Below are positions 6,173 to 52,633 of a stretch of DNA of 64,000 nucleotides, in pieces (the first letter of the stretch is position 1; each line of letters opens with the position of its first letter). Made by a program: the position numbers and the translations under genes. Source of the DNA: Candidatus Latescibacterota bacterium (lineage in GTDB: Bacteria > Latescibacterota > UBA2968 > UBA8231); the NCBI GenBank assembly GCA_965261395.1, contig OZ253462.1, positions 2,720,001 to 2,784,000 of the forward strand, in the 5' to 3' direction. The notes beneath the pieces were generated by a model. That model did no database searches and was not told where the DNA came from. It saw nothing but the letters and a program-made list of their open reading frames with translations.

Positions 6173-6289
6173 GGCAGAATTTTTTACAAGGTGCTAGCGT
6201 CAGGCTCGCTTTGATGATATCCGAGGCGGCGTGAACCGGGCTTAATCAGTTGGGAAGTGGCTAATTGAACAGAATACGTAGAGGCCAAT

Positions 6290-23169: not shown

Positions 23170-23521
23170 AAGTTCCTCTTTATTTTAACACCAAAAGCTA
23201 AGTACACGACAGTAAGCTAAGTTGTGGTACAGCCCCAATTTAGGTTTATTTGTAATCGCCCAAGATTGCATCTAAATCCTAAATACAGGAGCTGTACCGT
23301 GCTTATTCATACGCTAAAGAAAGCGCTCATGCAAGGGTCTGTATCCCTCACGCGCCACCGCCTGGACCTGATGAGTGGCTTGGTCTGTGCGCTGATGCAA
23401 GTGCGTTCGGTCAATCTGAGAAAACTCGCGTGTAGTCTGCCCGGCATGGCTCAAATAGACAGTCAATATCGTCGCCTACCGCGTTTTTTCAGCAGCGGAT
23501 TCTCCCCGGCCGTGTTTACTC

Positions 23522-25564
23522 AGTGATATTACGCAGCTCATAGGCATTGGTTTATCTTTTCTGACATGGATAAAAAACTGTTAGCCCTCTATAGTGATTA
23601 TCTGTTGAGTTCTTTTGGCGCTACGACCGCCACCGGCCTTTCGTCTTTGTTGGATGGCCAAATCAGCCACGACCCCGTGACGCGCTTTTTGTCTCAGGCC
23701 GACGACCCGTCGAAAGAGCTCTGGCATCAAGTCAAATCCGTGGTGCGCACCATCGAGCGCGAAGACGGGGTGCTCATTTTCGATGATACGATTCAGCAAA
23801 AGCCGTACACGGATGAAAATGAGTTGATCTGTTGGCCCTTCGATCCTAGTAAAAACCGCTCCGTCAAAGGCTTGAATCTGCTCAATTGCATCTATCAGGC
23901 CGGCGAGGTCCGTGTGCCGGTGGCCTATGCGTTAGTGCGTAAACCGATTCCGTTTTGCGATCGCCAAACGCGGCGGGTCAAACGCAAAAGCGAGGTGACT
24001 AAAAACCAATGGCGGCGGCAGATGCTACAGACCTGCCAGCAGAATCGCCTGCGCTACCGCTAGGTCTGGGCCGATAGTTGGTTTTCGGCCCAGGAAAACC
24101 GGTCATTTATCCGCCCAGACCTGAAGAAACACTGTATCGTCGCCCTCCAATCCAACCGGACGGTCGCCTTGAGCCCACAAGACAAAGCCCACAGCCGCTT
24201 CGTGCGCATCGATACGCTGGACGGGTCAGACCCCACGCCGGTAACCGCCGGGATCAAAGGACTCCCTTTTCCGATCCTGCTGCATCGGCGAGTCTTTACA
24301 AACAAAGACGATTCCACCGGTATTTTGTATCTGGCCTGTAGTGATCTCGACCCACATGGAGACGCCCTTGAGACGATCTATCAAAAACGATGGAAAGTCG
24401 AAGTCTTTCACCAAACGCTCAAGTCCCATGCCGCGCTGGCCAAGGCGCCGACCAAACGGGTCCGTACCCAAAGCAACCACGTCTTTATGGCCATCTATGC
24501 AGCCTTCTCCTTAGAAGCCGTCTGAAAACCCTCTGATGTAGCCGAATTTGAAAGGGCGTACTCATCGAGCCATATTCAGGTTTCACCACAAAATCTGAAC
24601 AGAAAGGCTTGTATAATGAGTACGCCGCGTAGGCAATATGCCACCGATCTAACCGATGGACAATGGCAGCGGATCGAACCGTTGCTGCCCGCGCCGCGCT
24701 GGCGGCTTCACGGTCCGGGTCGGCCGCCGCGGGATCGACGCCAAATCGTCAACGGCCTTTTATATTTGAACAAGACGGGGTGTCCTTGGGCTTTGTTGCC
24801 TGCTTGTTTTGGGCCGTGGAAAACGGGGTATGATTACTTTCGTCGCTGGAGCCTGCAAGGGGTCTGGCCGCCGGTGTTGGATCGGTTGACCAAGCGGGAA
24901 CGCCGCCAGAGCGGCCGGGCGGCGATGCCGTCGGCTGGCTGCGTCGATAGTCAGACGATTAAGACCGCAACGCATGGTAAAACAACCGGGTATGACGCCG
25001 GTAAAAAGATCAAAGGCCGCAAACGGCATTTGTTGGTGGACACGTCGGGTTTGCTTCGACAGGTGGTGGTCACCGCCGCCGATGTCGATGATCGAGAGGG
25101 TTTGAAGCAGGTGTTGACCCGCTTGAAGGCCGCCGGAGTGGCTCGGTTACGCAAGCTGTGGGTTGATGGCGGCTACCAAGGCGAGGCCATCCGAACGTGG
25201 GTGGCCAACCAAAAAAAGACGCACAAAATAGACTTGGAAGTCGTCGCCAAACAAGGCTCCGGATTTACCCTAGTTAAACGCCGGTGGGTCGTCGAGCGCA
25301 CCTTGGCGTGGTTGATGAATTTTCGCCGACATGCGAGAGATTATGAGGTCTTGACCCGCCATAGTGAAGCCTTGATCCAGATTGCCATGATCCACTTGCT
25401 ACTTAAACGAATCAAATGAAAATTAGAGTTTTCAGACGGCTTCTTAGAGTGGCTGCGCATCAAGCAGCGGATGAATCCGTTTGCCCTCCGATCAAAACTC
25501 TATCTCAAGGCCATTCGACACGCCTTTGAAGAATGGCAGCACCTAAAGACTGCGTAACATCACT
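23522..25564 (+). mobile_element. IS701-like element (pseudogene) inserted in the IS4-like transposase
   Basis: IRs AGTGATATTACGCAG / CTGCGTAACATCACT; ORF MDKKLLALYSDYLLSSF...VLIFDDTI with internal TAG at 24061. Its C-terminus resumes after the IS5 copy (LEWLRIK...KTA*). Confidence 0.8.
24514..25443 (+). mobile_element. IS5-family element (IS1031-like), copy 1; transposase 24616..25419
   Basis: TIR GAAGCCGTCTGAAAAC / GTTTTCAGACGGCTTC; TTA duplication; YATDLTD, VDSQT, GRKRHLLVDT and RWVVERT motifs. Confidence 0.93.
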
Positions 25565-25924
25565 AATATAAGTTGATCGTCTCTAAGCTGGTGCGCCCCG
25601 GCCAGCCCCAGGTGTTGGTCATGGATCGTAGCCATTGGAAGTTGGGTCGCACCGATCTGAATCTGTTATGTGTCGGTCTGGTCTACCAAAGGGTGTCTAT
25701 TCCGTTGGTCTATCAGTCGTTGCAAAAGCCGGGCAACTCCCATACCGAAGAACGTAAACACCTGCGGACCCAAGTATGGGCCTAGCTGGATGCCAGCGTG
25801 TGTTGTTTAGTCGCAGACCGCGAGTTTATCGGTCGAGATTGGTTGGCCTTTTTGTTGGAGCAATCCGTCGATTTTGTCATTCGCCTACGGGGCAATACCT
25901 CGCTTACGCTTGACGATGGTCGGC

Positions 25925-25964
25925 GGCGTTATGCGGCCACCTTTGGCGTTATGCGGCCACCTTT
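25925..25964 (+). repeat. 20-bp tandem duplication that frameshifts the IS4-like transposase
   Basis: GGCGTTATGCGGCCACCTTT present twice. Confidence 0.85.
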
Positions 25965-26432
25965 AATGAACGGATGCCCCGAAACACCACCCGATACTAT
26001 CCACACCCGACCCTCTATAACGGCCTAACGCTGCATCTGGTGTGCCACCGCCCCGCCCGCGGCGAACGCATCCTGCTGATTACCAACCGAACCGACCTCC
26101 AACAGGGGCTGGCCGTCTATGGACAGCGCTGGGCTATTGAGACGACGTTTGCTTGTTTGAAATCGAGAGGATTTAATCTCGAAGATACCCACATGACCCA
26201 TCCTCAACGCATACATTTGCTGCTGGGACTGCTGGCATGGACGCTGCTATGGGCACTGCTCATGGGCGAGCAACTCCATCAAAGAAAACCCAGCCCCCTA
26301 AAAAAACATGGACAACCCGCCATAAGCCTCTTTCGACGAGGACTTGATCAACTCACCCAGATCATACACCAAGTGCGTGAGCAGCCTAAACAGGCCCAAC
26401 AATATCAACCCATTTTACTGTCGTGTACTTAG

Positions 26433-26703
26433 GGTACGGACTAATATCGCCGCCATCAAGAATTAACTGCTCAATCTCCGCAAGGGCATTACAATGCTCC
26501 AGAATACACGAGAAGTTTTTCGACTTGAGGATGTGACGAGGCTCCAACGCTATCAACCTCCTACATACACCAAAGTAGCCGCACACCAACTCGTGGTCAT
26601 CGGTAACATCGACTACATTATAGCCTAGCCGAACGAGTTCGGTTCGGAAAAACGTCACAAGGTCGCGGCGGAGATCTATGTCGATAGTGTGCTGTTCGGG
26701 CAT
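26433..26703 (-). pseudogene. 5' fragment of a hypothetical gene truncated by the IS4-like element
   Basis: ORF 26386..26703 reads into the IS right end; no continuation found at the other IS end. Confidence 0.55.
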
Positions 26704-26843
26704 ATCTCGGAATCAATGGCTGGCCTATGTGCTAGGCGTGTTGATAGATTGAAGAATAAAATTAAGGAGAACCTATGCCCAAACGCAAGATCGTCGTCAC
26801 CCGTGCCGCCGGGTCCGTCGCCGGCCGCACAGAGAAACAACTT

Positions 26844-27010
26844 ATGCGGATTGAGCAGATTGAAATCAAGAACTACCGTTCCTTCCGCCATGCCGTGTTT
26901 GAGGACTTACCCCCGATGGTCGTCGTCGTGGGCGCGAACGGCACGGGCAAGTCAACGCTACTCGACGTGTTTAACTTTCTCAAGGACGCGCTGACCCAGA
27001 ACTCGCCATG
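26844..27010 (+). pseudogene. N-terminal fragment of an ABC/AAA_21-type ATPase
   Basis: MRIEQIEIKNYRSF...VVGANGTGKSTLLD, then similarity is lost; no Walker B. Confidence 0.7.
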
Positions 27011-27163
27011 GCGGTGGCCGAGCCAGGCGGTCGACCTAGCCATTGCGTGGCAATCCAATCGATTGGATATTGAAGGAGCGTACTGCCTTACCGCTGACCG
27101 TGCGGTCTCGGTCTTCGACGGTAAACAATATCTCGTTCAAATTGCAGCAAAGGAGAGATATAA

Positions 27164-27628
27164 ATGGCCAAACTACTCGAAGAGATACTGAAGCAGAAAC
27201 AAGAGCAACAGGAAGCGTCGGAATTTAAACATGTAGCAGTTCGTCAGGAATGGATAGCCAACTGCGAACAGCTTATGTCGAAGATAGCTGGGTGGTTACA
27301 GCCTCTTAAAGACAAAAACTGGCTGGAGATCCAGTCAGGGGATATTCCGATTCGGGAAGACCAGCTTGGGGATTACGAAGCCCGATCTCTACGACTTATC
27401 TTTTTAGACAGCCAGATTCTCACCTTCAGACCGGTCGGGCATTTCATTGTAGGTGCTCAAGGACGAGTCGATGTGGTCTCGGGCAGCACCCTTCTCGCAA
27501 TGCTGCTGCATAAAGGAAATGACGAGTGGGACTTTGCGAGAAGAGAGAGCAGATCCGGGAAACCTGTACGGTGGGAATTCAATAGAAGTACCTTAGAGGA
27601 ATTTCTGGTTAAGTTCCTAGAAGAGTAA
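27164..27628 (+). CDS. Hypothetical protein
   Basis: RBS AAGGAG; 154 aa; 2 bp from the next gene. Confidence 0.7.
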   Translation: MAKLLEEILKQKQEQQEASEFKHVAVRQEWIANCEQLMSKIAGWLQPLKDKNWLEIQSGDIPIREDQLGDYEARSLRLIFLDSQILTFRPVGHFIVGAQGRVDVVSGSTLLAMLLHKGNDEWDFARRESRSGKPVRWEFNRSTLEEFLVKFLEE

Positions 27629-27630
27629 AA

Positions 27631-28161
27631 ATGCGCGAGTTCACTGGTGATTCGCTCCTCGAATGGTACGCCTTACTCCAACAAAATGTGCGCGACCTCG
27701 GCGACGAGCATTTCGAATCTTTCACACCGACTGAGCGCGACGAGTTACGTGCCGACCTGCTTGAGGAGATACGCAAGGACTACGCGTTCAAGCTCCTTAC
27801 GCTCTTGGAGGCAGGTATCCGAGAGGATTTTCTCGTATCTCTAAAACGAAAAAAGCGCGATAGAGTAAGCAGAGCGTATCGCGATCTGTGTAAGGAATAT
27901 CGCCGTGAGACTCGTCAAGTTGGCAAGCAGGCTACTCAGGCGTGTAGGCGGATTCCCCTTGAGCGGATCTTCGACAAGTTACGAGACTGTTTCAGCGACA
28001 TCGACGAGGCGTTTCGGAGGGTTTGCTCGGTGACCAAAGGATACTTCGGGTTTCGGAATTGGTATGCACACGGTCGGATTCGCACAATGCCAATTGTTCC
28101 CGATCCAGAGGACGTATATGATGCGTACGAGCGGTTTCAGGAGAAGGTACTGAATAGGTAA
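27631..28161 (+). CDS. Putative HEPN-domain protein
   Basis: Predominantly helical composition with C-terminal RNWYAHG (Rx4H). Confidence 0.6.
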   Translation: MREFTGDSLLEWYALLQQNVRDLGDEHFESFTPTERDELRADLLEEIRKDYAFKLLTLLEAGIREDFLVSLKRKKRDRVSRAYRDLCKEYRRETRQVGKQATQACRRIPLERIFDKLRDCFSDIDEAFRRVCSVTKGYFGFRNWYAHGRIRTMPIVPDPEDVYDAYERFQEKVLNR

Positions 28162-28202
28162 CTATTCAGCTTAGGACGAATTGGGGGTCACCTACAGGCA
28201 TT

Positions 28203-30380
28203 ATGAATACCGACGAACCAATCCCATTTGCAGCATTCGCCCGCTTCGAGCGGCTCACCGCCGAGAAGCCGCTGCTATACTGCGAGCCACCCGCGTGGGC
28301 GGCTGCCAGTCACGCCATCGTCGTTGGCGACACCGTGCATTATCTATGGGCCAAAAAGGGAGGGGACAATAGCTGGGTACACATGCACAGCTCCGCGCCA
28401 GTCGCCGATCCCACGGCGGTGACGCACGACTAGCGCAATCCCATCCTGCGGCCTTCCGCAGACGGCTTCGACAACCAAGGTGTAGAATACCCATTCCCGT
28501 TCTGGAATCCCGCCGACCAGCGCTACTACGCCTATTATCTCGGCAGCCAAGGCGAGAACAGGCCTCGTCGCAAACAGACCGGCCTACTAGTCAGCGACGG
28601 CGATTTAGGGGCGTGGACGCGGATTAGCGATGCACCCGTAGTTGCCGTCGGCGGCGCGCACGAGCAACACGGCTCTTCCCATCCGTCGGTGGCCGTGTCG
28701 GGCGATGTCATTCACATGGTCTATACCGGCGAATGGCTTTGTTGCATGAAAACCGGTCGGGGCCGTGTTGGCTTCTTTCGCGTGTGATTTACGCTTTTTT
28801 GGTTAGCGGATAGGACTCAGGTTTCGCCAACGCCCGCATCCGGTTGAGCAAGGCACAGCCCAACCGCGCTTCGGTCTGTTGGTTGGTTAGGGTTCGGGTG
28901 CGCAAGGTGTCACCAAGTATCTGTTTGTAGCGGCCTATCTGCGTTTCGGCTACCGAGCGTCGATGATAGCCGCTCTCGTGTTTCCAACCTCGACGGCCCC
29001 GTTTGCGGATGGCTCGAATCGTCTCATCGCGGGGCAACGGCTCGGCGTTGGTGTTGCCATGTTGCTCGATTTTGGCGTCCTTGCGCGGCGGAATGATCGG
29101 ATGAATAGGTGCCCCCTGCTCGGGCGCGGCCAACGCCTTGAACACCTTGCGTTTGTCATAGGCCCCATCGCCGCCCAACGCCTCCACGGGGGCCTCGATC
29201 TGTGCCAGCAACGGCTCCACCTGCCCCGCATCATCGTGGCTATTCGTCGTCAAGGTCTGCGCGACGATCTCGCCGGTGGCTTCATTAACCCCGAGGTGCA
29301 ATTTGCGCCACGTGCGCCGCTTGCTCCAGCCGTGCTGACGCACCTTCCATTCGCCTTCGCCATACACTTTCAGCCCGGTCGAATCCACCACCAAGTGCAT
29401 CGGTTGGTCTCCCCGCTGGGGCGGCCACGCCACGGCTAAACCCGCCTGACGGCGCGACAGGGTCGTGTGATCGGGCACCCGCAGATCCAAGCCCATCAGG
29501 GCCAACACCGAAGCGACAAACCCCTCGGTTTGGCGTAGGGGCAAGTGATACAAAAGACGCAGCGTCAACGCCGTTTGGATGGCGACCTCCGAAAAGGTAT
29601 ATTGCGCCCCCCGCTGAGGCGGCCCTTGATAATACCAAGCTTCGACGGCCTGGGGCGTGAACCACACCGTCAGACTACCGCGCTGTTGCAGCCCGGCCTC
29701 ATAGTCGGCCCAATTACGTACCCGGTACACGACGTTGGAGCGACGGCGAGGCGAGCGACCAGGCTTGACGGAAGAGGGGCAAGACGATAGGTTGGCCATG
29801 ACAGGTTCCTTGGACGAGAAAGCATGGGTTTTTTGGCGAAAGTCGTGCTCAATCTACTGAGGAGCCTGTTTTTATTCAACCGATCAACCGAAAAAAACAC
29901 CAATTCATGCACCAAAGCCCCGGCGAATCGCCAGCGCCTCCTGCACGGCGCGATATCCTCTACAACGTGCCGACCATCTGTCACGCCACTGCACCAACCA
30001 GCGACCCAGCGCAGGTCACCAAAAATCCCGCCAATCCCGTGTTCTGCGGATCGGGGCAGGCGTGGGATCGCTATGGGGTGCGCGAAGCCGAAATCCTCAA
30101 AGGGCCGAGCTACTTCCATCTGTTCTACGGAGGCTACGACGGCGAGGTCTGGGCCATTGGGCACGTCCGCACGCGCGACTTCCGCGCTTTCGAACCCAAC
30201 CCACACAACCCGATCTTCACGCCTGCGACCGATGCCGATGCTTGGGACCGCGATGGCCTCCTGACCCCACAGGTGTTCGCGATCAATGGGACCTATTACA
30301 TGATATATGCTGGTCTCAGAGGATCGGGATGGAATCGCGTGTCAGCAGTCGGGACGGGCTTAGCCGTAGCCAACCCATAG
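28203..30380 (+). pseudogene. Five-bladed beta-propeller glycosidase-like gene (GH32/43/130-like), with an internal stop and an IS insertion
   Basis: Repeated NPIL/NPVF...WD blades; TAG at 28431; IS at 28735-29919; reading frame resumes in ORF 29907..30380. Confidence 0.75.
28735..29919 (-). mobile_element. IS5-family element (IS903-like); transposase 28789..29799
   Basis: TIR GGCTTTGTTGCATGAA / TTCATGCACCAAAGCC; 9-bp duplication CCGGCGAAT; VDSTGLKVYGEGEW, DGAYD and YHRRSVAET motifs. Confidence 0.95.
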
Positions 30381-30387
30381 GGATCCC

Positions 30388-31842
30388 TCACCCACGCTCA
30401 TCGGCCCGCTCAATAACCCGCATACTCTTCCAGCGCCCCGTGCGAAAGCGCAAGTAGAAAGCCACGCCTTGGACGCATATATACGCACAGGCAAAGCTCC
30501 ATATCAGGTACAGTCCTCCGTCGAAATAAGTTAGGGCGACAAAAGACGGCACGACCATGAGCACCCAAGCCAGCGAGATCGACATCCACATGACGAAGCG
30601 GGTGTCGCCTGCGCCCTTAAGGGTCGCTGTGAAGACCATATAGGCGACGTCGGAGACGCCGTACAGGGCCACGAAGCGCAGCAAGACCACGGCGATCTGA
30701 TGCGCGGCCGCAAAGTTGGCGTCCCTGTCTGCGCCAAAGGGCGCAAGGAAAAACTCCGGCACCACGATGTAACCCAAGGACATCGTCCCCATGTACAGCA
30801 TGGCCAAGTGTAAACCCGACCACGTGCAGTACTCGGCGGTTTCGGGCTGATCGCGCCCCAAGCGCTGGCCGACCATCGTCGATACGGCAATGCTGCAACC
30901 AATGAGCGGCATAAAGGCGAGGCTGTTGATGTGAAAGGCCAAATTCGTTGCCGCCAACGGGATCGGCCCCAAGCGGCCCACGATAAACAAAAAGGAGGTA
31001 AAGGCCATGATGTCGAGCATGAAGTTGACGCCGTTGGGGCCGCCGAAGCGCAATAGGCGCCGCAGCAGCTTGAGGTCGGGCTTCCAGCCGCGCAACGTGG
31101 CGTACTCGCTGCGATATCGCGGCCTCAAAAACAGCACCGCGAAACACAAGGCCGAGACCACCAAGCCGATATTGGTGGCCCACGCCGCCCCGACGATCCC
31201 CAACTCAGGCAGTCCCCAGTGCCCGAATATCAAGGCGTAGTCGCAGATGATGTTGACACTGATGGCCAAGGCATTGACTGCCAGCACCACCCACGTCTGG
31301 CCTCGCCCGCTGAAAAAGCACGAGAAGGCCGTGGACAAGACTTGCGGACCGGTGCCGTAGCAAAGGATGCGGAAGTACTGGGTTTCAGCGGCGCGGATGT
31401 CCGAGTCGTGGCCAATGAACGCGAAAAGTTCGCCAGCAAAGGCGGCCGGCAGCAAGGCCAAGAGGCCGCCGAACAAAGCCACGTATGCCCCTTGCCACAC
31501 GGCCGGCCCTACGCGCGTCAGCCGCCGCGCACCCATGTATTGGGCGACAAACGTGTTGGCGTATTGGGCCGTGCCCATAAAGAGGCTGATGAAGGTGAAG
31601 TTGGCCATGCCCGCCGGCAGCGCGGCCGCCAACGCCTCGGTGGAATACCAAGAGAGAAAGACCCGATCGACAAAGTGCTGGATGCTCCAGCTAGCCGTGC
31701 TCAGAATCAGCGGCAGGGCAAGCCCTAAAAACTCCCGGTACCCGCCTGCGGCTCCCCACCGCCTAGCGATGCGACCCACGCTCAGTTCGCCATAAATTCG
31801 GCCACGGCAATCAATTCGCCGCCGCGCCGCGCCGACTCCCAC
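30388..31842 (-). CDS. MATE-family efflux transporter
   Basis: LALPLILS...VDRVFL, GLPELGIVGAAWAT and LKGAGDT motifs. Start probably near 31785. Confidence 0.9.
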   Translation of the reverse strand: MGVGAARRRIDCRGRIYGELSVGRIARRWGAAGGYREFLGLALPLILSTASWSIQHFVDRVFLSWYSTEALAAALPAGMANFTFISLFMGTAQYANTFVAQYMGARRLTRVGPAVWQGAYVALFGGLLALLPAAFAGELFAFIGHDSDIRAAETQYFRILCYGTGPQVLSTAFSCFFSGRGQTWVVLAVNALAISVNIICDYALIFGHWGLPELGIVGAAWATNIGLVVSALCFAVLFLRPRYRSEYATLRGWKPDLKLLRRLLRFGGPNGVNFMLDIMAFTSFLFIVGRLGPIPLAATNLAFHINSLAFMPLIGCSIAVSTMVGQRLGRDQPETAEYCTWSGLHLAMLYMGTMSLGYIVVPEFFLAPFGADRDANFAAAHQIAVVLLRFVALYGVSDVAYMVFTATLKGAGDTRFVMWMSISLAWVLMVVPSFVALTYFDGGLYLIWSFACAYICVQGVAFYLRFRTGRWKSMRVIERADERG

Positions 31843-32801
31843 CCCGCCAATACCGGGGCCAGCGAATAGAGGCCGTCGGCATAGTCGTTGAGCAGCAGGG
31901 CGCGGTTGCCGGTGCGCACGGCCTCAATGAAGACGCGGTCTTGCGCAAACCACGGGTCAAATTCCTCCGGCGCGTACACGACCTCGCCATTGACCTCGAT
32001 CCGGTCGTACATCCACAGCGCCAAGTAGCCCCCTTCGTAAAAAATGGTAAAACGCGGCTCGTCGCCCGGAGCGGTGGGCGTGGTGGCGAGAAACGTCGAG
32101 GTCATGGTCGCCCCGTTTGCCAACAAAAAGTTAAACGAACACGACAGCGGCGTGTTGTACCGAGGGGGATGGTGGTAAAACGCTTGGGCTTGGGTAATAT
32201 CGAGACCGCTCATAAAGCGCGCGTAGTCAACGGCGTGCACCCCCCAGTCGAAGGCCGAGCCGCCGGCCTTGTCCATCTGATAGTGCCAACTGTCTGGGTC
32301 GGGGACCTCGGCTTCGAGCAGGGGCAGGCCAGCCGTGCTCTGGAAGCAGATGTGGGTGATGGCCTTATCCGCGAGCAGGCGGCGGGCCTCCTGAAAGAGC
32401 GGGCGGTAGCGCTCGCGGAAACAGACCGTTGAAATCGCGCCACCCTCTGCGACCGCATCGGCGATGCGCCGCGCAACAGCCATACGGGTCGCTTGCGGTT
32501 TCTCACTGAAGAGGTGGATGCCCCGCGCTGCGGCCGCGGCTTCCACATCGGTGCGCGCAAAGGCCGGCACGACCGAATAGAGCGCGTCGAGCTGCTCCTC
32601 CGCGAGCATCTGGTGCGGGTCCGCATAGGTGCGGGTGATGGAGTATTTTTGCGCGGTGGCGGCGAGGTTGTCCGGGTTGGGGTCACTCGCGGCGACCAGT
32701 TCGACGCCAGCTAGCTTACTCAGGTTGGGCAGGTGAGTTTGGTTGGCGAAACGGCCGGTGCCATAGATGCCGACGCGTACCGGGCGATTGTCTGCGGACA
32801 T
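31782..32801 (-). CDS. Gfo/Idh/MocA oxidoreductase
   Basis: GIYGTGRFA, FSEKP and DWGVHAVD motifs. Confidence 0.9.
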   Translation of the reverse strand: MSADNRPVRVGIYGTGRFANQTHLPNLSKLAGVELVAASDPNPDNLAATAQKYSITRTYADPHQMLAEEQLDALYSVVPAFARTDVEAAAAARGIHLFSEKPQATRMAVARRIADAVAEGGAISTVCFRERYRPLFQEARRLLADKAITHICFQSTAGLPLLEAEVPDPDSWHYQMDKAGGSAFDWGVHAVDYARFMSGLDITQAQAFYHHPPRYNTPLSCSFNFLLANGATMTSTFLATTPTAPGDEPRFTIFYEGGYLALWMYDRIEVNGEVVYAPEEFDPWFAQDRVFIEAVRTGNRALLLNDYADGLYSLAPVLAGWESARRGGELIAVAEFMAN

Positions 32802-33054
32802 GAGTGAATCCTTTGTTGACAGCTTTTATACAGCGGAGCGGAATGGGCAAGAAAAGGAAAAAGGAAACCATGCGCCAGACCGCTCTGCGGCAGGTCACAG
32901 GGCAATCTGAGGCGTCTGTCCTACGCTCGTGCCGCCTTCGCCACCGAGTAGGCGAACGCAGAATATTTCAGCCCCGTGGTACCAATTGCAACTGTTCACA
33001 CGAGTAAGTACCTTCGCGTCAGATAACGGCCATTAACCATCGAAAGACACACCT

Positions 33055-33528
33055 ATGATTCAGCGAAAGGCTGTACGCGCGGTCATTATGACGCCGGATC
33101 ATCGAGTACTGCTGATGAAGCTCCAAGAGCCTGTCGCAGGATTTCAAGTTTGGATTACGCCCGGCGGCGGCTTGAAACCCCATGAGTCTGATGAAGAAGG
33201 ACTACGGCGAGAAGTAGCTGAAGAGACAGGTGTTAGGAATTTCTGTCTGGGGCCACCCGTATGGACCAGAAAACACGAATTCTCTTGGAACGGTCGAAGC
33301 TATAGCCAAAATGAAGTCTATTATCTCGTACAAGCAGACCAATTTGATCCGGTAATGGACGTGGAGGCGGCTCCAGGTGAGGCAGCGGCGTTCCACGAGT
33401 TCCATTGGTGGTCAATCGACGCCATCGCTAGGTCCGCAGAGAAATTCGCTCCTCGCAATCTTCATTGTCTGCTTGAGAGTATCGCCAAGAACGGGCCACC
33501 AGATAAGCCTATCGCCGTAGGAGCATGA
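33055..33528 (+). CDS. NUDIX hydrolase
   Basis: PGGGLKPHESDEEGLRREVAEETG Nudix box. Confidence 0.92.
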   Translation: MIQRKAVRAVIMTPDHRVLLMKLQEPVAGFQVWITPGGGLKPHESDEEGLRREVAEETGVRNFCLGPPVWTRKHEFSWNGRSYSQNEVYYLVQADQFDPVMDVEAAPGEAAAFHEFHWWSIDAIARSAEKFAPRNLHCLLESIAKNGPPDKPIAVGA

Positions 33529-33775
33529 GCGTTAGGGGCCACCAGCGTTTAACGGCACTATTCGGTTCTTGGCCTTAGGCAACTTGCTTTACAGTCTCGA
33601 AAACCGTGGAAACTTTATGGGAAATGCGAATACAGAAGATCCGAATCCCACAAGAAAACTGAGGTGCCATGGAGCATGTGACGTTCCGAACTCACGTTAT
33701 TCATTAATATTGCGAACGTTCTCACGCAGATGATCAAACCAAAAGAGTTGCTTACGCTACTCCTCGTTTAGTCGA

Positions 33776-35275
33776 ATGAGAAAGATACCCATGTTACGCA
33801 TTGTCTTGCTCACCCTATCATTTCTAGCCCTTTCCTGCTCGAAACATCAACCGCCACCTGTCGCGCCAGCGGGTAAGGCCAACTGTGCCCTGTGCGGCTT
33901 CCTCGGCGATGGGAATCATCAAGCCCCTGACGGCTCGGGCGGACATACGGCACCTCAAGATAGCACCGAAACCGAAACCGATTCGCTTCCTGCTGATTCA
34001 ACGGCAACTACTCAGACCGATGATATAGAAGAGACTGATACCACAGCTACAGAGGCTGATACCACGGCTACAGATATAGAAGGCGATGATAACGTCAGTA
34101 CTGGCGGCGATACGAACCAGTATATTCGTATCCATCGCAGTTACGCGCCCATGGCCGACCACTGGATTGTCGGTGATATGCTTGCCGAGGATGCTTTAGA
34201 CGAGTTAACGTATGGCCAAATGGAGATCTACCGCGAGGCGGCGGCGGCGTGGGACCGCGTCATTGTCAATGGCTTGCCCGAAGGCATAGACATTTATCCC
34301 TTCATATCGTCTAATGTGGACTATTTCGTTTATGCTTATGCAACTACCGCCGACACAGAAGTCGGTACCAACGGCATTGAGTTTATCAAGTCATGCATAA
34401 TCGGCACTACCTCTTTTCCGTTTGGTGATGCCATCACCGACGAGCTATGGAGCATCACCGAGCGCGAGTTTGCGCTACGTGTTGCCAAACATGAAATAGG
34501 GCATTGTATCGGCATAGGTGCTAACAATGTCACCTTCATTGAAATGACTGAAGAGGAAACCATATACCCTTACGAAGTGATAGACGATTCTACTGCACCA
34601 GATGACTGGGATTTAGAGATAGACACTACGGCCCAGGACATGTATAGAGTCTATTTCACCGGTACTAGCACCGTGCGAGAGTTCAACCGGTTGGCCGACG
34701 ATAAGTGGGGCCATACCGGTGTGCCGCTGAATTCTGGCGAGTCCCCGGGTCAATTAGATTACGGTCATTGGGACAGCCCCATCCTTATGCGAAGCGTTAT
34801 GAGCATTCGCCCGGTTAGCTACGGCAACTTACAGTATAATGGCATCCATGCCATAGACGTAGCTGCGCTCAAGGACTTGGGCTATTCAGTCAACAAGGCG
34901 GGCATTGAAGCCGAGAGGCTTATCGCCGGGTTCCGGTATATCAGTACTGACGAAGGCTATCCTTACCTAGGCGTCGAGACGCTTATGTTTCCCGACCACG
35001 AGCTTCACTTTCCCGAGCGCGCCCACTATTACCTTGTCATCGACGAGGGGCGCACTATCAAAAAATATATGAACGCTATCAATGCCCACGTAGTCCCGAG
35101 AACCCATCCCAATATCGTCTGGCGTAATGTGCTATGGACGCCTCAGCATTTGCAGAAGCCCTCCGAAGTCTTTTGGGGTGGCTTGTCGGGGCCACCGGCG
35201 GGGAAAGCGGTCGCGCGACCTTCCTTTACTTGCTTATTGAGTTCTGCAAATATAAAGGAAGGTTTTACAGTTTAA
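33776..35275 (+). CDS. Lipoprotein zinc metallopeptidase, leishmanolysin (M8)-like
   Basis: Lipobox LALSC, acidic Thr-rich linker, HEIGH motif, distal GHW and Met-turn-like SVMS, AALKDLGY. Confidence 0.75.
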   Translation: MRKIPMLRIVLLTLSFLALSCSKHQPPPVAPAGKANCALCGFLGDGNHQAPDGSGGHTAPQDSTETETDSLPADSTATTQTDDIEETDTTATEADTTATDIEGDDNVSTGGDTNQYIRIHRSYAPMADHWIVGDMLAEDALDELTYGQMEIYREAAAAWDRVIVNGLPEGIDIYPFISSNVDYFVYAYATTADTEVGTNGIEFIKSCIIGTTSFPFGDAITDELWSITEREFALRVAKHEIGHCIGIGANNVTFIEMTEEETIYPYEVIDDSTAPDDWDLEIDTTAQDMYRVYFTGTSTVREFNRLADDKWGHTGVPLNSGESPGQLDYGHWDSPILMRSVMSIRPVSYGNLQYNGIHAIDVAALKDLGYSVNKAGIEAERLIAGFRYISTDEGYPYLGVETLMFPDHELHFPERAHYYLVIDEGRTIKKYMNAINAHVVPRTHPNIVWRNVLWTPQHLQKPSEVFWGGLSGPPAGKAVARPSFTCLLSSANIKEGFTV

Positions 35276-36303
35276 GTTGTGCATACTTGAAGAAGCCTCT
35301 AATCAGGTCGTTATCGTGATGCTGGGCGGTGATCGACATGCAGACCGCATCTGCTACGTCGTCGATGTGGTCTGGAATGAAGTGGGCTAGATCGCCATAC
35401 TTAGTATGATTCCAGACCTGTTCAGCCGGATTCAATTCGGGTGCATAGGCGGGTAACCATTCGATGGTGAGTCGATCCGGATACCTTTTGTGCAATACCG
35501 CCACCGCGGCGCGATGCACACTCCACCGATCCAAAATGAGCACGACCTTGCGCCGTATCATACGCCGCAGAGGACCGACAAAGGATACCACATCCTGCCG
35601 GTCAATATTATGCTCATACATTCGGAAATAAACGCCCAACCGCTGGCGCCGAGGCGGCAAGGTAACGGCGGCCTGAACCGACAAGCGATCATGGCGATCC
35701 CACACCTTGTGTATGGGCGTGTGACCCGACAAAGCCCACGTCCTACGACGGGTGGGTTGCAGCATGAAGCCCCTCTGATCCATCAAGGCGATGGTCGCCC
35801 CTTGGTGCCGGGCTTTTTTTTAATCCGCGGCCACTCCACTAAGCGCCATTGGCGGATGGCCTCCTCCTCCCGTTCGCGCGCCCGGTGCTGGGGATACTGG
35901 CATGAAAAACCCAACCCATGCAGCAGACGACCCACGTGATCGGGATGATAGGACACCCCAAACGTTTGGGCCATCACCTGCGCGACACGCCGACAGGTCC
36001 ACAGCGCTATCAAAGCCAGCCGCCTGGGGGCCTTGGAGCAGAAGCTGTTTCAACTGATCCTTGTCTTGGGGACTCAACTGACAGCCCCGACCCGGATGCG
36101 GTTTGGCTTTGAGCCCCTCCTCGCCGGCTTGCGCTTTCATCGCCTTCCAACGAGACACCGAGGAAGGGGAGACTTGGACCAGACGAGCTACTTCGTTGAC
36201 GCCTTTGCCGGCATCAAGCAACTGAGCCGCCCATTGACGACGATATTCCAGCCGATCGGCACTACCTTTAGGTCGCATATAAATGAATATAACTATTCCT
36301 TTA
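35253..36303 (-). mobile_element. IS630-family element (two ORFs, frameshifted)
   Basis: Imperfect IRs TAAAGGAA.../...TTCCTTTA with TA ends; HTH ORF from about 36278; DDE ORF 35265..35786 (LILDRW, PAYAPELNPAEQVW). Confidence 0.85.
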
Positions 36304-36351
36304 AAAATGCAGAGGTCAATAACGGGAATGTTTGCCCCCACCATCCCGTAA

Positions 36352-36560
36352 GAGGCTGTCTGAAAACCATATTTTTTTATTTGATCCGTTTGAGTAGCAA
36401 GTGGATCATGGCAATCTGAATCAAGGCCTCGCTATGGCGGGTCAACACCTCATAATCTCGGGCATGTCGACGAAAATTCATCAACCACGCCAAGGTGCGC
36501 TCGACGACCCAAGTTTGAGTACGGTAAATCCGGGGCCTTGTTTGGCGACGACTTCCAAGC
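36352..36560 (-). mobile_element. 3'-end remnant of a related IS5 (IS1031-like) element
   Basis: GAGGCTGTCTGAAAAC end, followed by the reverse complement of the WVVERTLAWL...LLKRIK coding segment, diverged from the three intact copies. Confidence 0.8.
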
Positions 36561-36761
36561 TATAAGAACAGTGAACGGTTCACAGAGAACGGGTATCTAG
36601 AGTAAGCGGTTGTGCTAGATACTAGATATGTCCGTGTCTGGCTCCAGGCTATGTCCTTTGCGGTCCGAGTACGGCGGACGTTAGCCGAAAACCTTGGTGA
36701 AACACATAACCCAGACTAGGAAAGGGACACATGCCATTCAAGATTGCTGACGATCCAGAGG

Positions 36762-37937
36762 GGCTTTGGTGCATGGATCGGTATTTTTGGGTTTCTCGGT
36801 TGAATAAAGACAGGCTCCTCAGTAGATTGGGCATGACTTTTTTGCGAAAAGACTCTATGCCTTCTCTTCCAAGGAACCTGTCCTGTCCAACGTATCGTCT
36901 GCTCCGTCTTCGGTCAAGCCCCGTCGCCGTCGCTCGAAGGTTGTGTATCGGGTGCGTAATTGGCCTGATTATGATGCGGGGCTTACCCAGCGCGGTAGCC
37001 TGACGGTGTGGTTTTCCCCCCAAGCGGTCGAAGCGTGGTATTATCAAGGGCCGCGCCAACGGGGGGCGCAATATACCTTTTCGGACGTAGCCATCCACAC
37101 GGCGTTGACGTTGCGGCTTATGTATCACTTGCCGCTACGCCAAACCGAGGGGTTTGTCGCTTCCATTGTAGCCTTGATGGGCTTGGCTATACGGGTGCCG
37201 GATCATACGACCCTCTCGCGGCGTCAGGCTGACTTGACAGTAGCGTTGCCTACCCAGCCCACGGATCAACCCCGGCATTGGGTCGTTGATTCGACGGGGT
37301 TGAAGGGGTATGGCGAAGGCGAGTGGAAGGTGCGTCAGCACGGCTGGGGCAAGCGGCGCACCTGGCGCAAATTGCACCTTGGGGTCGACGAAGCCACCGG
37401 CGAGATCGTCGCCCAGACGTTGACGGCCAATCGCCCAGATGATGCCGGGCAGGTCGAGCCGTTGCTGGAGCAAGTCGCGGCCCCCATCGCGGCGGTGGGC
37501 GGGGATGGAGCCTATGATAAACGCAAGGTGTTTGAGGCGTTGGCTGCGCCGGACCGAGGGCCGCCGATCCGGCCGATCATTCCGCCGCGCAAAGACGCCA
37601 AAATCCAGCAACATGGCAACTGCAACGCGGAGCCGTTGCCCCGCGATGAGACGATCCGAACCATCCGTAGCCGGGGCCGTCGAACCTGGAAAAAAACCAG
37701 TGGCTATCATCGCCGATCCCTCGTCGAAACCCAGATCGGCCGCTACAAACAGAGCCTCGGCGACACCTTGCACGCCCGAACCCTATCCCACCAACAAACC
37801 GAAACACGAGTGGGATGTGCCATACTCAACCGGCTATTGCATTTGGCTAAGCCCGAGTCCTATCCGATAACCAAGGAAGTCTAAAACACACCAGACAAGG
37901 GGCAACACGGCCCCGACAGTTTTCATGCACCAAAGCC
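36762..37937 (+). mobile_element. Second IS903-like element, degenerate; transposase about 36883..37884
   Basis: TIR GGCTTTGGTGCATG / CATGCACCAAAGCC; start ATG replaced by CTG; no target duplication. Confidence 0.9.
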
Positions 37938-38958
37938 ACAAAGCAATACACGCAACGTCGCTTACGCTCCTTAGAAGCCGTCTGAAAACCCTCTGATGTA
38001 GCCGAATTTGAAAGGGCGTACTCATCGAGCCATATTCAGGTTTCACCACAAAATCTGAACAGAAAGGCTTGTATAATGAGTACGCCGCGTAGGCAATATG
38101 CCACCGATCTAACCGATGGACAATGGCAGCGGATCGAACCGTTGCTGCCCGCGCCGCGCTGGCGGCTTCACGGTCCGGGTCGGCCGCCGCGGGATCGACG
38201 CCAAATCGTCAACGGCCTTTTATATTTGAACAAGACGGGGTGTCCTTGGGCTTTGTTGCCTGCTTGTTTTGGGCCGTGGAAAACGGGGTATGATTACTTT
38301 CGTCGCTGGAGCCTGCAAGGGGTCTGGCCGCCGGTGTTGGATCGGTTGACCAAGCGGGAACGCCGCCAGAGCGGCCGGGCGGCGATGCCGTCGGCTGGCT
38401 GCGTCGATAGTCAGACGATTAAGACCGCAACGCATGGTAAAACAACCGGGTATGACGCCGGTAAAAAGATCAAAGGCCGCAAACGGCATTTGTTGGTGGA
38501 CACGTCGGGTTTGCTTCGACAGGTGGTGGTCACCGCCGCCGATGTCGATGATCGAGAGGGTTTGAAGCAGGTGTTGACCCGCTTGAAGGCCGCCGGAGTG
38601 GCTCGGTTACGCAAGCTGTGGGTTGATGGCGGCTACCAAGGCGAGGCCATCCGAACGTGGGTGGCCAACCAAAAAAAGACGCACAAAATAGACTTGGAAG
38701 TCGTCGCCAAACAAGGCTCCGGATTTACCCTAGTTAAACGCCGGTGGGTCGTCGAGCGCACCTTGGCGTGGTTGATGAATTTTCGCCGACATGCGAGAGA
38801 TTATGAGGTCTTGACCCGCCATAGTGAAGCCTTGATCCAGATTGCCATGATCCACTTGCTACTTAAACGAATCAAATGAAAATTAGAGTTTTCAGACGGC
38901 TTCTTAGGGCTTCGCCCACCCCGCATGCGCGGGGTCATGAATTGTGAAAGCGTTATGT
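37938..38958 (+). other. Probable integron attC site split by IS5 copy 2 and clipped on the left by the IS903-like element
   Basis: Removing the IS gives ..acaaagcaatacacgc...catgaattgtgaaagcGTTATGT, with internal hairpins (gggc-ttc-gccc, ccccgc-at-gcgcgggg). Confidence 0.5.
37974..38903 (+). mobile_element. IS5-family element, copy 2; transposase 38076..38879
   Basis: Same TIRs and protein as copy 1; TTA duplication. Confidence 0.93.
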
Positions 38959-39008
38959 GAAAACGGGGTTCATGTTTCGTATATTCATAAAGGCATGGAG
39001 GTCATAGG

Positions 39009-39233
39009 ATGAATGAACGAATCATAATCGATCCCTCGATCCGCCATGGCAAGCCGGTGGTGCGAGGGACCCGAGTGCCGGTGCATCGGATTATTGGGAG
39101 CCTTGCAGGTGGGGCAACCCCAGAAGAAGTCTGTGAGGAATATGGCATTATCGACGCGGATGTACGGGCCGCTCTTGAGTACGCGGAGGAACTCGTAGAA
39201 GCAGAAGAAGCTCATCCTCTACCTGCATCCTAA
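39009..39233 (+). CDS. DUF433-family antitoxin
   Basis: IIIDPSIRHGKPVVRGTRVPV...DVRAALEYA. Confidence 0.9.
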   Translation: MNERIIIDPSIRHGKPVVRGTRVPVHRIIGSLAGGATPEEVCEEYGIIDADVRAALEYAEELVEAEEAHPLPAS

Positions 39234-39239
39234 ATCGGT

Positions 39240-39602
39240 TTGCGATTCATCATCGACGCTGATCTTCCTCGCGCTGTAGCCGTTGTGATTGCCGATTTCG
39301 ATCACGAGTCGGTTGACGTTCGGGACATAGGCATGGGGGTTTCCAGTGACGAGCAGATCGCGGAGTATGCGCGCTTGAGAAGGCTGTGTTTGCTAACTGC
39401 CGATTTGGGTTTCGGGGATGTCCGGCAATATCCTCCGTCAAGGCATGTTGGCATTGTGATCTTACGTTTACCTCGCCACGCAACGACTTCCTTCATACTA
39501 TGGCTGCTTTCATCGTTCCTCCGACGAGGAGAGATACTGTTGAAGCTTGAGGGTAAACTGGCAGTGGTGGAAGCAGGTCGCGTCCTGCTTCGAACACGGT
39601 GA
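39240..39602 (+). CDS. DUF5615 PIN-like toxin
   Basis: MRFIIDADLP, SDEQI and LLTADLGFG motifs. Confidence 0.85.
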   Translation: MRFIIDADLPRAVAVVIADFDHESVDVRDIGMGVSSDEQIAEYARLRRLCLLTADLGFGDVRQYPPSRHVGIVILRLPRHATTSFILWLLSSFLRRGEILLKLEGKLAVVEAGRVLLRTR

Positions 39603-39622
39603 GATCTGTCTTGCCCGTCTTC

Positions 39623-39676
39623 ACATAACACATCGGTGTTGCTCTGCGCGGGTTCGCAAACCGGAAGACGTTAGGC
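39623..39676 (+). other. Integron attC-like recombination site
   Basis: R'' ACATAAC, L'' CGGT(G)TTGC pairing with L' GCAAACCG (one extrahelical G), R' GTTAGGC; begins 20 bp after the toxin stop. Confidence 0.65.
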
Positions 39677-39835
39677 GACATAGAAAAAAACGAGTGGACG
39701 TTATTTTGGTATCTCTCCAGAATAGACGGATATATATCGCATTTTTGCAGTATAATCACTATTTCGCATCACGAGGGCACGCCAGAATCCGTCGCAGACG
39801 AGGATGGATGACACGATACCGAGGAACTGACACGA

Positions 39836-41907
39836 TATAGCAATCCTAAATCATTTAAGAGATATTGCATATTGTTTCAACTTGGGGAAATGGAAGTATC
39901 TGCTCTGTCGAATTCCCTTGACGAATAGGTCTTTAATCTGTTTAAAACAGGTGGTCCATAACGCATGGGTGCGCACAAAGGTTTTGCCTTTTAACCAGAG
40001 GTCTTCGACCGGATTTTCTTGCGGTGCATACGGGGCCAATCGCGTACCGTCGATCTTCCACTCGTGGGGTGCTCGATCGGCTTGGAGCGCTTGCAGAAAA
40101 TCACGCATGGCCCGTTGGTGATGATAGGAAACGCCGTCCCCAAAGATCAACAACTTTTGCCCGGGACGACGCTGTTGTAGGTAGCGTACAAAGTCCACGG
40201 TATGCTGTGAGTTGGCCTTCGGGTAGCTTTGCATGAGGAAGGTGCCCTTGACCACATCCAAGGCTCCATAATAGGTTTGTCGTTGACGGCCATTTTCAAT
40301 GGAAACCTCAAGCCGTTGGTCTTGGCGTCCCCAAGCATAGCCACAGGCTTCGTCCCCGTGCAGGTGCGACTCATCAACGAAAAAGGCACTGAGAAGCCGT
40401 CTGAAAACCCTCTGATGTAGCCGAATTTGAAAGGGCGTACTCATCGAGCCATATTCAGGTTTCACCACAAAATCTGAACAGAAAGGCTTGTATAATGAGT
40501 ACGCCGCGTAGGCAATATGCCACCGATCTAACCGATGGACAATGGCAGCGGATCGAACCGTTGCTGCCCGCGCCGCGCTGGCGGCTTCACGGTCCGGGTC
40601 GGCCGCCGCGGGATCGACGCCAAATCGTCAACGGCCTTTTATATTTGAACAAGACGGGGTGTCCTTGGGCTTTGTTGCCTGCTTGTTTTGGGCCGTGGAA
40701 AACGGGGTATGATTACTTTCGTCGCTGGAGCCTGCAAGGGGTCTGGCCGCCGGTGTTGGATCGGTTGACCAAGCGGGAACGCCGCCAGAGCGGCCGGGCG
40801 GCGATGCCGTCGGCTGGCTGCGTCGATAGTCAGACGATTAAGACCGCAACGCATGGTAAAACAACCGGGTATGACGCCGGTAAAAAGATCAAAGGCCGCA
40901 AACGGCATTTGTTGGTGGACACGTCGGGTTTGCTTCGACAGGTGGTGGTCACCGCCGCCGATGTCGATGATCGAGAGGGTTTGAAGCAGGTGTTGACCCG
41001 CTTGAAGGCCGCCGGAGTGGCTCGGTTACGCAAGCTGTGGGTTGATGGCGGCTACCAAGGCGAGGCCATCCGAACGTGGGTGGCCAACCAAAAAAAGACG
41101 CACAAAATAGACTTGGAAGTCGTCGCCAAACAAGGCTCCGGATTTACCCTAGTTAAACGCCGGTGGGTCGTCGAGCGCACCTTGGCGTGGTTGATGAATT
41201 TTCGCCGACATGCGAGAGATTATGAGGTCTTGACCCGCCATAGTGAAGCCTTGATCCAGATTGCCATGATCCACTTGCTACTTAAACGAATCAAATGAAA
41301 ATTAGAGTTTTCAGACGGCTTCTGACGTGGCCGGCTTCAAGATCGGCCTTATGATCGGCTAGTTTTTTTTAATGACTTCTCGCTGGTCCATCGCCTGTTG
41401 CAGATCAGCTTTCGGCCTACGGGCTTGCGTCTTTTTCCAGCTATAGCGAGCCTGCGAAAGTAGGTCGTAATAGCTTTGCGACGAGCGAAAGACCACGCCA
41501 AACTGGGTTTGGATATAGGCGGCTAACCCGGCGACCGAAGGCGGCGGTTGGGTGGCTAACCACGCGTGGATTTGTGCACATTGATCGGCCGACAAAAAAG
41601 GCTGCGACCCGGTATAAGCCAAGCGCAAACCGTCCACGCCCTCGGCCTGATAGCGTTTCTTCCACGTGCTAATGAAGCTCGACGGTACGCCGAGAATGGA
41701 TTGAATCACCCGTTGTTTGAAGCCCAACTGCGTCCTGTGAACCGCTAACGCCCGTTTCAATTCCCGTGCATCGGGATTGCTGGCGATAAACGCCGTAAGA
41801 GAAGTATCCGAAGGCATAGATATGCTCCTAAAAAAGGGGGGCCATACCAAACGCAGGATAACATAGAAAAATTAAATAATGCTCTCAACTCATTCAGGAT
41901 TGCTATA
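39836..41907 (-). mobile_element. IS630-family element, degenerate and interrupted by IS5 copy 3
   Basis: IRs TATAGCAATCCT / AGGATTGCTATA; HTH ORF ending IKKN at 41359; DDE ORF 39851-40390 (FVDESHL, APYAPQENPVEDLW). Confidence 0.88.
40393..41322 (+). mobile_element. IS5-family element, copy 3; transposase 40495..41298
   Basis: Same TIRs and protein as copy 1; TGA duplication. Confidence 0.93.
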
Positions 41908-46085: not shown

Positions 46086-47456
46086 GCCTCAATGAAGACG
46101 GGGCGGGGCCTCCCCGGAAATATGAGAAATGGCGCTGTAGGGGCGACCGGCCGGTCGCCCCTACGGACTTCAATGAGGCCGGGGCGTTTCCACCCCGGAA
46201 ATCTTCGGCGACCCGCATCCTCTCCCAGCCGCGCATCTTACTTCAATGAGGCCGGGGCGTTTCCACCCCGGAAATGGAACAAAACCAAGCATACCTTGGC
46301 GAGATTATCGTCACTTCAATGAGGCCGGGGCGTTTCCACCCCGGAAATGTCGAGCTGAACCCCCTCGCGTCGATGGTCATAGGGTTGAACTTCAATGAGG
46401 CCGGGGCGTTTCCACCCCGGAAATCCAACGCTCCAGGATCGTCGCCTACGATTTCGATAAGGACTTCAATGAGGCCGGGGCGTTTCCACCCCGGAAATGC
46501 ATCAAAAGCAGATATATGAGCGCTCGGTAGGCCCGCTTCAATGAGGCCGGGGCGTTTCCACCCCGGAAATCATGCCCGCAGCTATCCTGGGCGTCCCGCT
46601 CCTGAATAAGCTTCAATGAGGCCGGGGCGTTGCCACCCCGGAAATCGCGACCGACGATCTTCTGTCCGAGCTCCTCGAACTTGCTTCAATGAGGCCGGGG
46701 CGTTTCCACCCCGGAAATCCTGCACCGGATGCCTGTCAAGGCCGCCCCTCGATATGTGCTTCAATGAGGCCGGGGCGTTTCCACCCCGGAAATCTCCTCG
46801 TGGTGAGTTCGTTGGGGCGTCATTGCCCTGCTTCAATGAGGCCGGGGCGTTGCCACCCCGGAAATGATCCTCGACGTTGACCTCTTTCTTGCCCAACAGG
46901 CCGCTTCAATGAGGCCGGGGCGTTGCCACCCCGGAAATAAGCGTCGGCAGCCTGCTTTAGCGCATCAGCCGATTGCTGCTTCAATGAGGCCGGGGCGTTG
47001 CCACCCCGGAAATGGTACGCCACAGCTTTTGCGGCTCGCCCGAGCCGTCGCAGCTTCAATGAGGCCGGGGCGTTGCCACCCCGGAAATGAAGTAAGGGAA
47101 GTATTAGGTCTCTCGGCTTCTATCGCTTCAATGAGGCCGGGGCGTTGCCACCCCGGAAATTCCTCGACGATCCGGAGTTTCTCCCAGCCACGCAGCTTGC
47201 TTCAATGAGGCCGGGGCGTTGCCACCCCGGAAATCGATACCCAGCAGACGGCGCTGGACTTGGTTCGTCCGATGCTTCAATGAGGCCGGGGCGTTGCCAC
47301 CCCGGAAATGGACCAAATTCATTCCGTCCAGACCGCAGCCATAAGTGCTTCAATGAGGCCGGGGCGTTGCCACCCCGGAAATGGCCTCATCAAGTCCAGC
47401 GCCGTCTGCTGGGTATCGTCGCTTCAATGAGGCCGGGGCGTTGCCACCCCGGAAAT
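46086..47456 (-). CRISPR. CRISPR array: 19 repeats of 36 bp (including a degenerate terminal repeat) and 18 spacers
   Basis: Plus-strand repeat (G/A)CTTCAATGAGGCCGGGGCGTT(G/T)CCACCCCGGAAAT. Degenerate copy at 46086-46121 marks the trailer. Minus-strand repeat ends ATTGAAGC. Spacers 36-45 bp. Confidence 0.99.
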
Positions 47457-47665
47457 AGTCCCTGCGGAACTCCTTGTGCGGCTTGGGTTTTCCACCCGTT
47501 TTGCGAGCGGTGGCCGCTTTGTCTTCTCGAACATGCAAATTGTTCGCCAAACGCATACCATGATACGGTCTATCTCCTTGTAATACAAATAGAAAGCACA
47601 TTGCGAGAGCTACCAGCCTTTTTCCTTCCACCAGAGCACTCGCAGGGGACACGGCAGATTCCCCG
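47457..47665 (-). promoter_or_regulatory. CRISPR leader
   Basis: Non-coding, relatively AT-richer stretch between cas2 and the first repeat. Confidence 0.75.
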
Positions 47666-47959: not shown

Positions 47960-47964
47960 ATTCG

Positions 47965-49677: not shown

Positions 49678-49721
49678 GCGGTGAGAGCTAAGGGCCGTTT
49701 GCTATACGGTTAAAGGCAGCT

Positions 49722-49931: not shown

Positions 49932-49960
49932 TATAGCGATGTGCGAATTCGGCGGTTTCT

Positions 49961-51511: not shown

Positions 51512-51524
51512 GGCATGCCCCCTG

Positions 51525-52616: not shown

Positions 52617-52633
52617 GATAAGTCTCCTTATGC

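Follow-up and report, generated by a model that had tools for sequence, protein, structure and literature searches.

Why have the broken insertion sequences (IS) of a sponge-associated bacterium changed so largely in one direction, from A:T to C:G? The question arises from a stretch of 64,000 nucleotides of Candidatus Latescibacterota (the window: assembly GCA_965261395.1, contig OZ253462.1, positions 2,720,001 to 2,784,000), where positions 23198-41907 form a nest of IS4-like, IS701, IS5, IS903-like and IS630 elements. An initial annotation, made by eye, saw A:T>C:G transversions dominating the lesions of several of these families, and proposed either a mutT-type mutator or a mechanism that mutates repeated DNA, as repeat-induced point mutation (RIP) does in fungi. 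The excess is real in the broken IS of a group of sponge-associated bacteria. With a probability of about one half, it reflects recombination between dead IS copies that resolves toward C:G, through MutY or through repair synthesis with oxidised deoxyguanosine triphosphate (dGTP).

The genome holding the window (G000) is a single contig of 6.55 Mb with 59% G+C. It was compared with 30 further species of the same genus, the nearest being about 94% identical across aligned blocks; the metagenome contigs searched held no conspecific strain (best protein identity 92%). Sponge metagenomes are among the sequencing runs that contain part of the window sequence. IS lineages were classed as broken or open by a stop or frameshift alone, leaving the spectrum aside, and changes were polarised by the majority of the other lineages or by an outgroup.

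The dead IS701 element bears the heaviest load in the window. Set against the intact copy of the sister species G037, 24 of its 36 nonsynonymous differences are A:T>C:G, compared with 1641 of 12504 in 839 intact gene pairs (Fisher p 2e-13), and the excess first seen by eye thus holds when counted. Among its private changes 23 of 42 belong to this class, whereas nine copies from five relatives have 0-4 such changes among 14-34. Read on the coding strand, the 23 are 11 A>C and 12 T>G, and the IS5 copies of another relative, G034, show 8 and 8; a transcription-linked strand bias is ruled out, both strands being hit equally.

For a count across the genus, seven IS alignments with 22 broken and 47 open lineages were pooled. 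IS630b, a small IS5-like family and an Rpn-like one stayed outside the pool, either for having too few clusters, for not being IS or for a doubtful frame. The A:T>C:G class makes up 94 of 200 nonsynonymous changes in broken IS (47%), 54 of 177 in open IS (31%) and 145 of 936 in host genes (15.5%); p-values from the pooled counts overstate the significance, since lineages within one IS family share kinship. Heavy loads occur elsewhere in the genus, in G034 (IS5, 14-19 per copy), G036, G037, G038 and G033 (IS630). Two hold-out IS families gave 67 of 207 and 31 of 118, the broken class of the hold-out IS630b resting on indels relative to one reference and being possibly overcalled.

The elements and genes of the nest are the following.

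23198..23524, + strand: left arm of a dead IS4/IS5-superfamily element (DDE_Tnp_1), interrupted by IS701; joint 23521-25571 found in sequencing runs; Q>P at 23479
23526..24515, + strand: dead IS701-family element (DDE_5), three near-identical genomic copies
24516..25447, + strand: open IS5-family element (DUF4096 and DDE_Tnp_1), 10 near-identical genomic copies, sitting inside IS701
25444..25570, + strand: 3' tail of IS701 past the IS5 insertion
25571..26432, + strand: right arm of the dead IS4-like element (two genomic copies), with a stop at 25783 and a 20-bp duplication
28204..30380, + strand: host glycosidase-like gene (a name from the initial annotation only), split by IS903a; young pseudogene
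28746..29905, - strand: open IS903-like element (DDE_Tnp_1_5; IS903a), 20 genomic copies
30388..32801, - strand: two intact host genes within the IS cluster, serving as local control
35240..36322, - strand: frameshifted IS630-family copy
36345..36563, - strand: IS5-family 3' fragment
36770..37937, + strand: second IS903-like subfamily (IS903b), seven genomic copies
37976..38907, + strand: IS5-family copy, identical to 24516-25447
39836..41907, - strand: second IS630-family element, split by an IS5 copy at 40395-41323

The whole dead IS4-like element, whose unsplit twin lies at genome positions 2644894-2646079, carries 11 A:T>C:G changes among 33 private ones, and IS903b, in which CTG replaces the start codon in six of seven copies, carries 13 of 49. 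The frameshifted IS630 copy differs from four intact copies at 20 positions, six of them in this class; in the second IS630 element the class accounts for 6 of the 19 changes private to G000 against 1 of 9 in the G037 sibling. The open IS5 element at 24516..25447 has 2 of 14, and the two intact host genes show a normal spectrum (0 of 30 and 2 of 16). The glycosidase-like pseudogene (1 of 18) is too young to be informative as a neutral control.

Sixteen of the 17 codons named in the initial annotation could be located, and 14 are clear A:T>C:G changes relative to other lineages of the same IS: all six in IS701 (including 23836, 23845 and the TAG at 24061), all five in the second IS903 copy (including the CTG at 36883), Q>P and N>H in the IS4-like element and V>G in IS5. 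The W>G, I>L and M>R proposed for IS630 fit three of the six such changes private to G000 in the second IS630 element. The TAG at 25783 is ambiguous (relatives have TAC seven times and TAT five times), as is the polarity of TTG>TGG in the first IS903 copy relative to other lineages, and AAC>CAC in the second copy is seen pairwise between the copies, unpolarised. These two copies, treated initially as one family, belong to separate subfamilies with 81% identity, and the examples from IS5 and from the first IS903 copy come from open families of 10 and 20 copies. The TAG at 28431 in the glycosidase-like gene, described initially as not obviously fitting the pattern, is of the C>T type, G037 having CGG.

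It is extremely improbable that the pattern stems from sequencing or assembly error, or from a choice of examples by eye. In the four read runs compared with the window (X15, X19, X1 and X2), several IS701 positions do lack any listed contig showing the window base, contigs being prone to drop rare variants and the read comparison listing 40 of about 1100 differences. Yet at the lesion sites 24014, 24101 and 24116 the window base has a depth of 156 in X15 (possibly the source sample), where single-copy contigs reach about 52, as expected of three IS701 copies. A 548-base contig spans the second IS903 element with one difference, joints in the four runs confirm several element boundaries, and independent assemblies of relatives show the same class of change under categories set by stop or frameshift. 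In each of these runs a lesion-free variant of IS701 (23526-24515) far exceeds the dead one in depth, from which it follows that co-occurring strains or species carry many intact copies.

A different explanation is that the whole genome mutates mainly from A:T to C:G, in the mutT-like manner of oxidised dGTP, and that dead IS, being A+T-richer, are its sole long-lived unselected DNA. A genome-wide A>C bias exists and explains part of the IS pattern. At 24,647 fourfold sites on the G000 branch, A>C runs at 0.052 per site, equal to C>T (0.052), nine times C>A (0.0056) and about the load of IS701 (0.046-0.048), with A>G at 0.094. A>C amounts to only 7% of host fourfold counts because just 13% of these sites are A or T. 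The A:T>C:G counts on the G000 lineage are 108 of 1541 at fourfold sites and 38 of 367 in intergenic DNA, both under some selection. At IS composition, host synonymous rates alone predict an A:T>C:G share of 29%, fourfold rates 28% and intergenic rates 15%. Synonymous A>C in open IS (0.033 per site) is near that of host genes (0.038). This bias, which covers a good part of the pattern, had escaped the initial annotation, as had active gene conversion.

The 47% observed in broken IS rejects all three host-based predictions (p 5e-11 or less). Per opportunity, the A>C:A>G ratio reaches 3.1 in broken IS; at host neutral sites it is 0.55 (fourfold) and 0.43 (intergenic). We estimate a remaining excess of 2-6-fold relative to C>T after the death of an IS, from small numbers, with nonsynonymous transitions, which are few in IS701 and in the G034 IS5 copies, serving as a clock. 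The excess is confined to IS at the kilobase scale: among 2356 windows of 1 kb compared with G037, the IS701 copies take the first five places (p 3e-12 to 1e-6), and the best repeat-free window reaches p 3e-4. Host DNA flanking four loaded IS5 copies of G034 is balanced, with 150 nonsynonymous A>C and 148 C>A. Host genes of G000 have A>C at 7 of 72 nonsynonymous changes. In 19 true host genes that are broken, A>C makes up about 19 of the 119 nonsynonymous changes in excess (16%, or 26% in both directions; obtained by subtraction).

No long-dead single-copy host gene, which would have been the natural control, was found among 1198 and 962 aligned genes, and the broken ones are few and young; the aligned host DNA covers 1.6 of 7.3 Mb of G037 and 0.4 of 5.0 Mb of G004. 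Although the genome has about 105 kb of IS-derived DNA, this aligned part contains almost no old host pseudogenes. The first sets of non-IS pseudogenes (9-12%) were discarded, as they consisted mostly of wrong-frame open reading frames or start extensions.

The repair genes bear on the same explanation. No G000 protein passes the mutT cut-off of TIGR00586, which would suit a general mutator. However, the best mutT match, among 12 Nudix matches, is the C-terminal domain of MutY (89.2 bits against a cut-off of 97.9), whose Nudix box is complete, and fpg, mutS and mutL are present, so that the mutT loss suggested initially is not borne out. The genome's only fpg/mutM gene lies in the window, at 10134-10937. 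The mutY gene (genome about 1882200-1883560) is above the TIGR01084 cut-off and has no stop; the fusion it encodes may be a bifunctional MutY-MutT enzyme, judging by its domains. Matches to mutY occur in 31 of 31 genomes of the genus. A general bias as the whole account is somewhat unlikely.

The lesions of IS701 and of IS903b, taken at first for private features of the window, are common to the copies of each family. In the four dead IS5 copies of G034, derived bases are shared in mutually incompatible patterns that no tree fits, which points to sequence exchange between copies; these copies appear to be mosaics produced by gene conversion, with recurrent mutation as a formal alternative. Their two terminal repeats also carry matching changes at mirrored positions. 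Among broken lineages, those with sibling copies have 68 A:T>C:G changes out of 112, against 26 of 88 in lone ones (p 2e-5, with copy status assigned by hand).

On the reading that we prefer, dead IS copies would persist in the genome and be kept alike by recombining with one another, and this recombination would resolve one-sidedly to C:G, on top of the weaker genome-wide A>C bias. In a first variant, held tentatively, an A:T copy and a C:G copy would form a heteroduplex and MutY would excise adenine from the A:G mismatch; any rare A>C mutation would thereby spread through the family and other mutations would drift. In a second variant, an unlikely one, the repair synthesis of conversion would place oxidised dGTP opposite A and MutY would fix the change. 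In open elements, selection on the transposase would purge most A>C changes, which dead elements would accumulate. MutY excises A from G:A mispairs (PMC12606429) and has been proposed to act on recombination heteroduplexes (PMC2582958). A weak action of this bias in host recombination would also explain why the fourfold A<->C asymmetry is 9-fold and that of transitions 1.8-fold.

Several results weigh against biased recombination between dead copies, some of them in favour of a general bias. Under the same filter for IS and host (a host reference of 28 genes in 20 genomes), the fourfold A>C:A>G ratio of IS does not significantly exceed that of the host (p 0.06 for open and 0.40 for broken IS); the contrast with unfiltered host counts was significant and is lost under this filter. 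Synonymous A>C in the G034 host genes around the loaded IS5 copies leans to G034 (181 against 114), which speaks against confinement. Intact host genes of G030 and G006 have raised nonsynonymous A>C, at 40 of 154 and 52 of 240 (22-26%), and 11 broken gene fragments in relatives, one of them an IS701-like piece, gave 25 A>C against 6 C>A among 127 changes. Dispersed non-IS duplicates, which are live genes, are barely raised in A<->C (322 of 1747, 18%), the reference being 10075 of 64141 (16%) for single-copy DNA and 186 of 643 (29%) for IS pairs. Derived C:G alleles in the G034 IS5 copies are fixed in 10 of 24 cases against 5 of 23 for others, which is only suggestive (one-sided p 0.08), and no significant suppression of C>A was found. 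The contrast between sibling and lone lineages has its confounders, as the lone group includes long live branches and fragmented assemblies. Stops are listed inside the mutY match in 24 of the 31 genomes. Finally, Y-family polymerase gave a weak partial match only, which weakens the variant with oxidised dGTP.

Three further observations belong beside these counts. The raised A>C across many intact genes of G030 and G006 is a lineage-level shift of spectrum. At fourfold sites, C:G>G:C relative to C>T is about 2.5 times higher in IS than in host genes. Non-IS duplicates have 18-19% A<->C, and variants of short-repeat arrays, leaving out the window's own array, 3 of 32.

The copies of each family also bear on a dedicated host defence that would recognise IS or repeats and mutate A:T to C:G. 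Confinement to IS, the involvement of both strands, loads of 4-6% of A:T sites and the destruction of transposases in several species would all fit such a defence. Yet all 20 copies of IS903a are identical and two 10-copy IS5 families are nearly so, and lesions are shared rather than independent. Since large recent families lack variation, neither transposition nor duplication as such is mutagenic. Of the initial interpretation, the IS-confined excess above host neutral sites is supported, whereas RIP-like targeting of every new duplicate and mutT loss are not.

A sequence preference would also be expected to fit a defence. In broken IS, A>C favours C[A]NNT, with 31 of 157 against 140 of 2259 distinct sites (odds ratio 3.7), which reaches significance in each of IS701, G034 and the remaining broken IS, and this preference is absent from host A>C changes, which also counts against a general bias. 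The motif was picked post hoc from 1056 patterns. It is weak in hold-out broken copies (9 of 225 against 73 of 4101; odds ratio 2.3, p 0.04), not significant in open ones and absent from unpolarised IS pairs within G000 (8 of 2606 against 178 of 40922; odds ratio 0.7), and is a lead only. A Dam-type context was discarded, GATC showing no enrichment (6 of 309). CRISPR targeting of IS is not supported, 144 spacer pieces having given matches of just 13-14 nt. As no candidate enzyme was identified either, a dedicated defence is very unlikely. A related proposal, that homology-dependent rewriting of A:T to C:G inactivates mobile-element repeats in sponge symbionts of several phyla, as an equivalent of RIP in bacteria that uses another chemistry and possibly has a C[A]NNT preference, is quite unlikely.

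The loaded elements could also have acquired their changes elsewhere, in a host or replicon whose spectrum is of the mutT type, and have arrived pre-mutated. The IS families are patchily distributed among species, one mutated ancestor would account for the same lesions in all three IS701 copies, and some lesions recur in other lineages. On the other hand, the synonymous distance of IS701 to G037 is host-like (30 in about 350 codons), and the pattern is seen again in several families and in no fewer than five genomes. The G034 copies carry private as well as partly shared A>C changes, which indicates that the process continued among resident copies. Arrival in a mutated state is accordingly highly improbable.

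Known systems offer partial likenesses. Fungal RIP changes C to T and hits each duplicate independently, soon after duplication. The present pattern resembles it in one mutation class concentrated in repeated mobile DNA, on both strands and with a possible context preference; it differs in its class (A>C), in the large recent families left untouched and in the sharing of lesions. By the defining features of RIP it is not RIP, and is best filed under biased conversion or oxidative mutagenesis. Pneumococcal hyper-recombination is reportedly grouped with MutY-dependent correction of heteroduplexes. Such A:G to C:G correction, as described for E. coli mutY and H. pylori recombination (PMC12606429 and PMC2582958), has the same direction as the change seen here; it needs a heteroduplex, which mosaic IS imply, and mutY, which this genome has. 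The established setting of this correction is crosses and transformation, where it appears as a repair or marker effect, and it is only a candidate cause here; the literature searched contained no report of MutY correction driving the decay of IS families. Gene conversion among non-functional IS copies of Wolbachia likewise keeps dead copies alike, but the accessible part of that paper describes no directional A:T>C:G outcome and does not contain the word transversion (PMC3205602). A mutT mutator, through 8-oxo-dGTP, causes highly specific AT to CG transversions on both strands, as here (PMC12606429); it acts genome-wide, whereas the host neutral sites here are transition-rich and the MutT-like Nudix domain is intact. 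No description of an IS-confined A:T>C:G change was found in the literature searched, most subscription papers being outside its coverage.

The window and its surroundings hold other features. The two dead IS4-like copies (window 23198-26432 and genome 2644894-2646079) flank a segment of about 98 kb whose ends are adjacent and oppositely oriented in G037, which suggests an IS-mediated inversion. Window positions 46087-57546 contain a CRISPR array, presumably of a type I-U/I-G-like subtype, that has about 19 repeats and is accompanied by cas2, a cas4-cas1 fusion, GSU0053 and cas3. A T/G variant of the repeat occurs along the array, three T>G changes mark a degenerate end repeat, and two of the array's spacers, at window positions 47235-47418, are mutually reverse complementary over 28 nt. 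A dispersed 47-nt repeat with a palindromic core stands at gene ends, at window positions 558-604, 5378-5424, 6139-6185 and 7013-7059.

The neutral mutation spectrum of bacteria, usually taken as AT-biased, is widely read from pseudogenes and IS remnants. The dead IS described here shift to G+C instead, by a single transversion class and several-fold faster than host neutral sites allow. If the cause were genome-wide, they would reveal a mutation spectrum hidden at fourfold sites, and if it were a dedicated system, a new defence. Should recombination together with MutY prove to be the cause, it would provide a named molecular route to GC-biased conversion in bacteria and, as a side effect, a brake on IS families.

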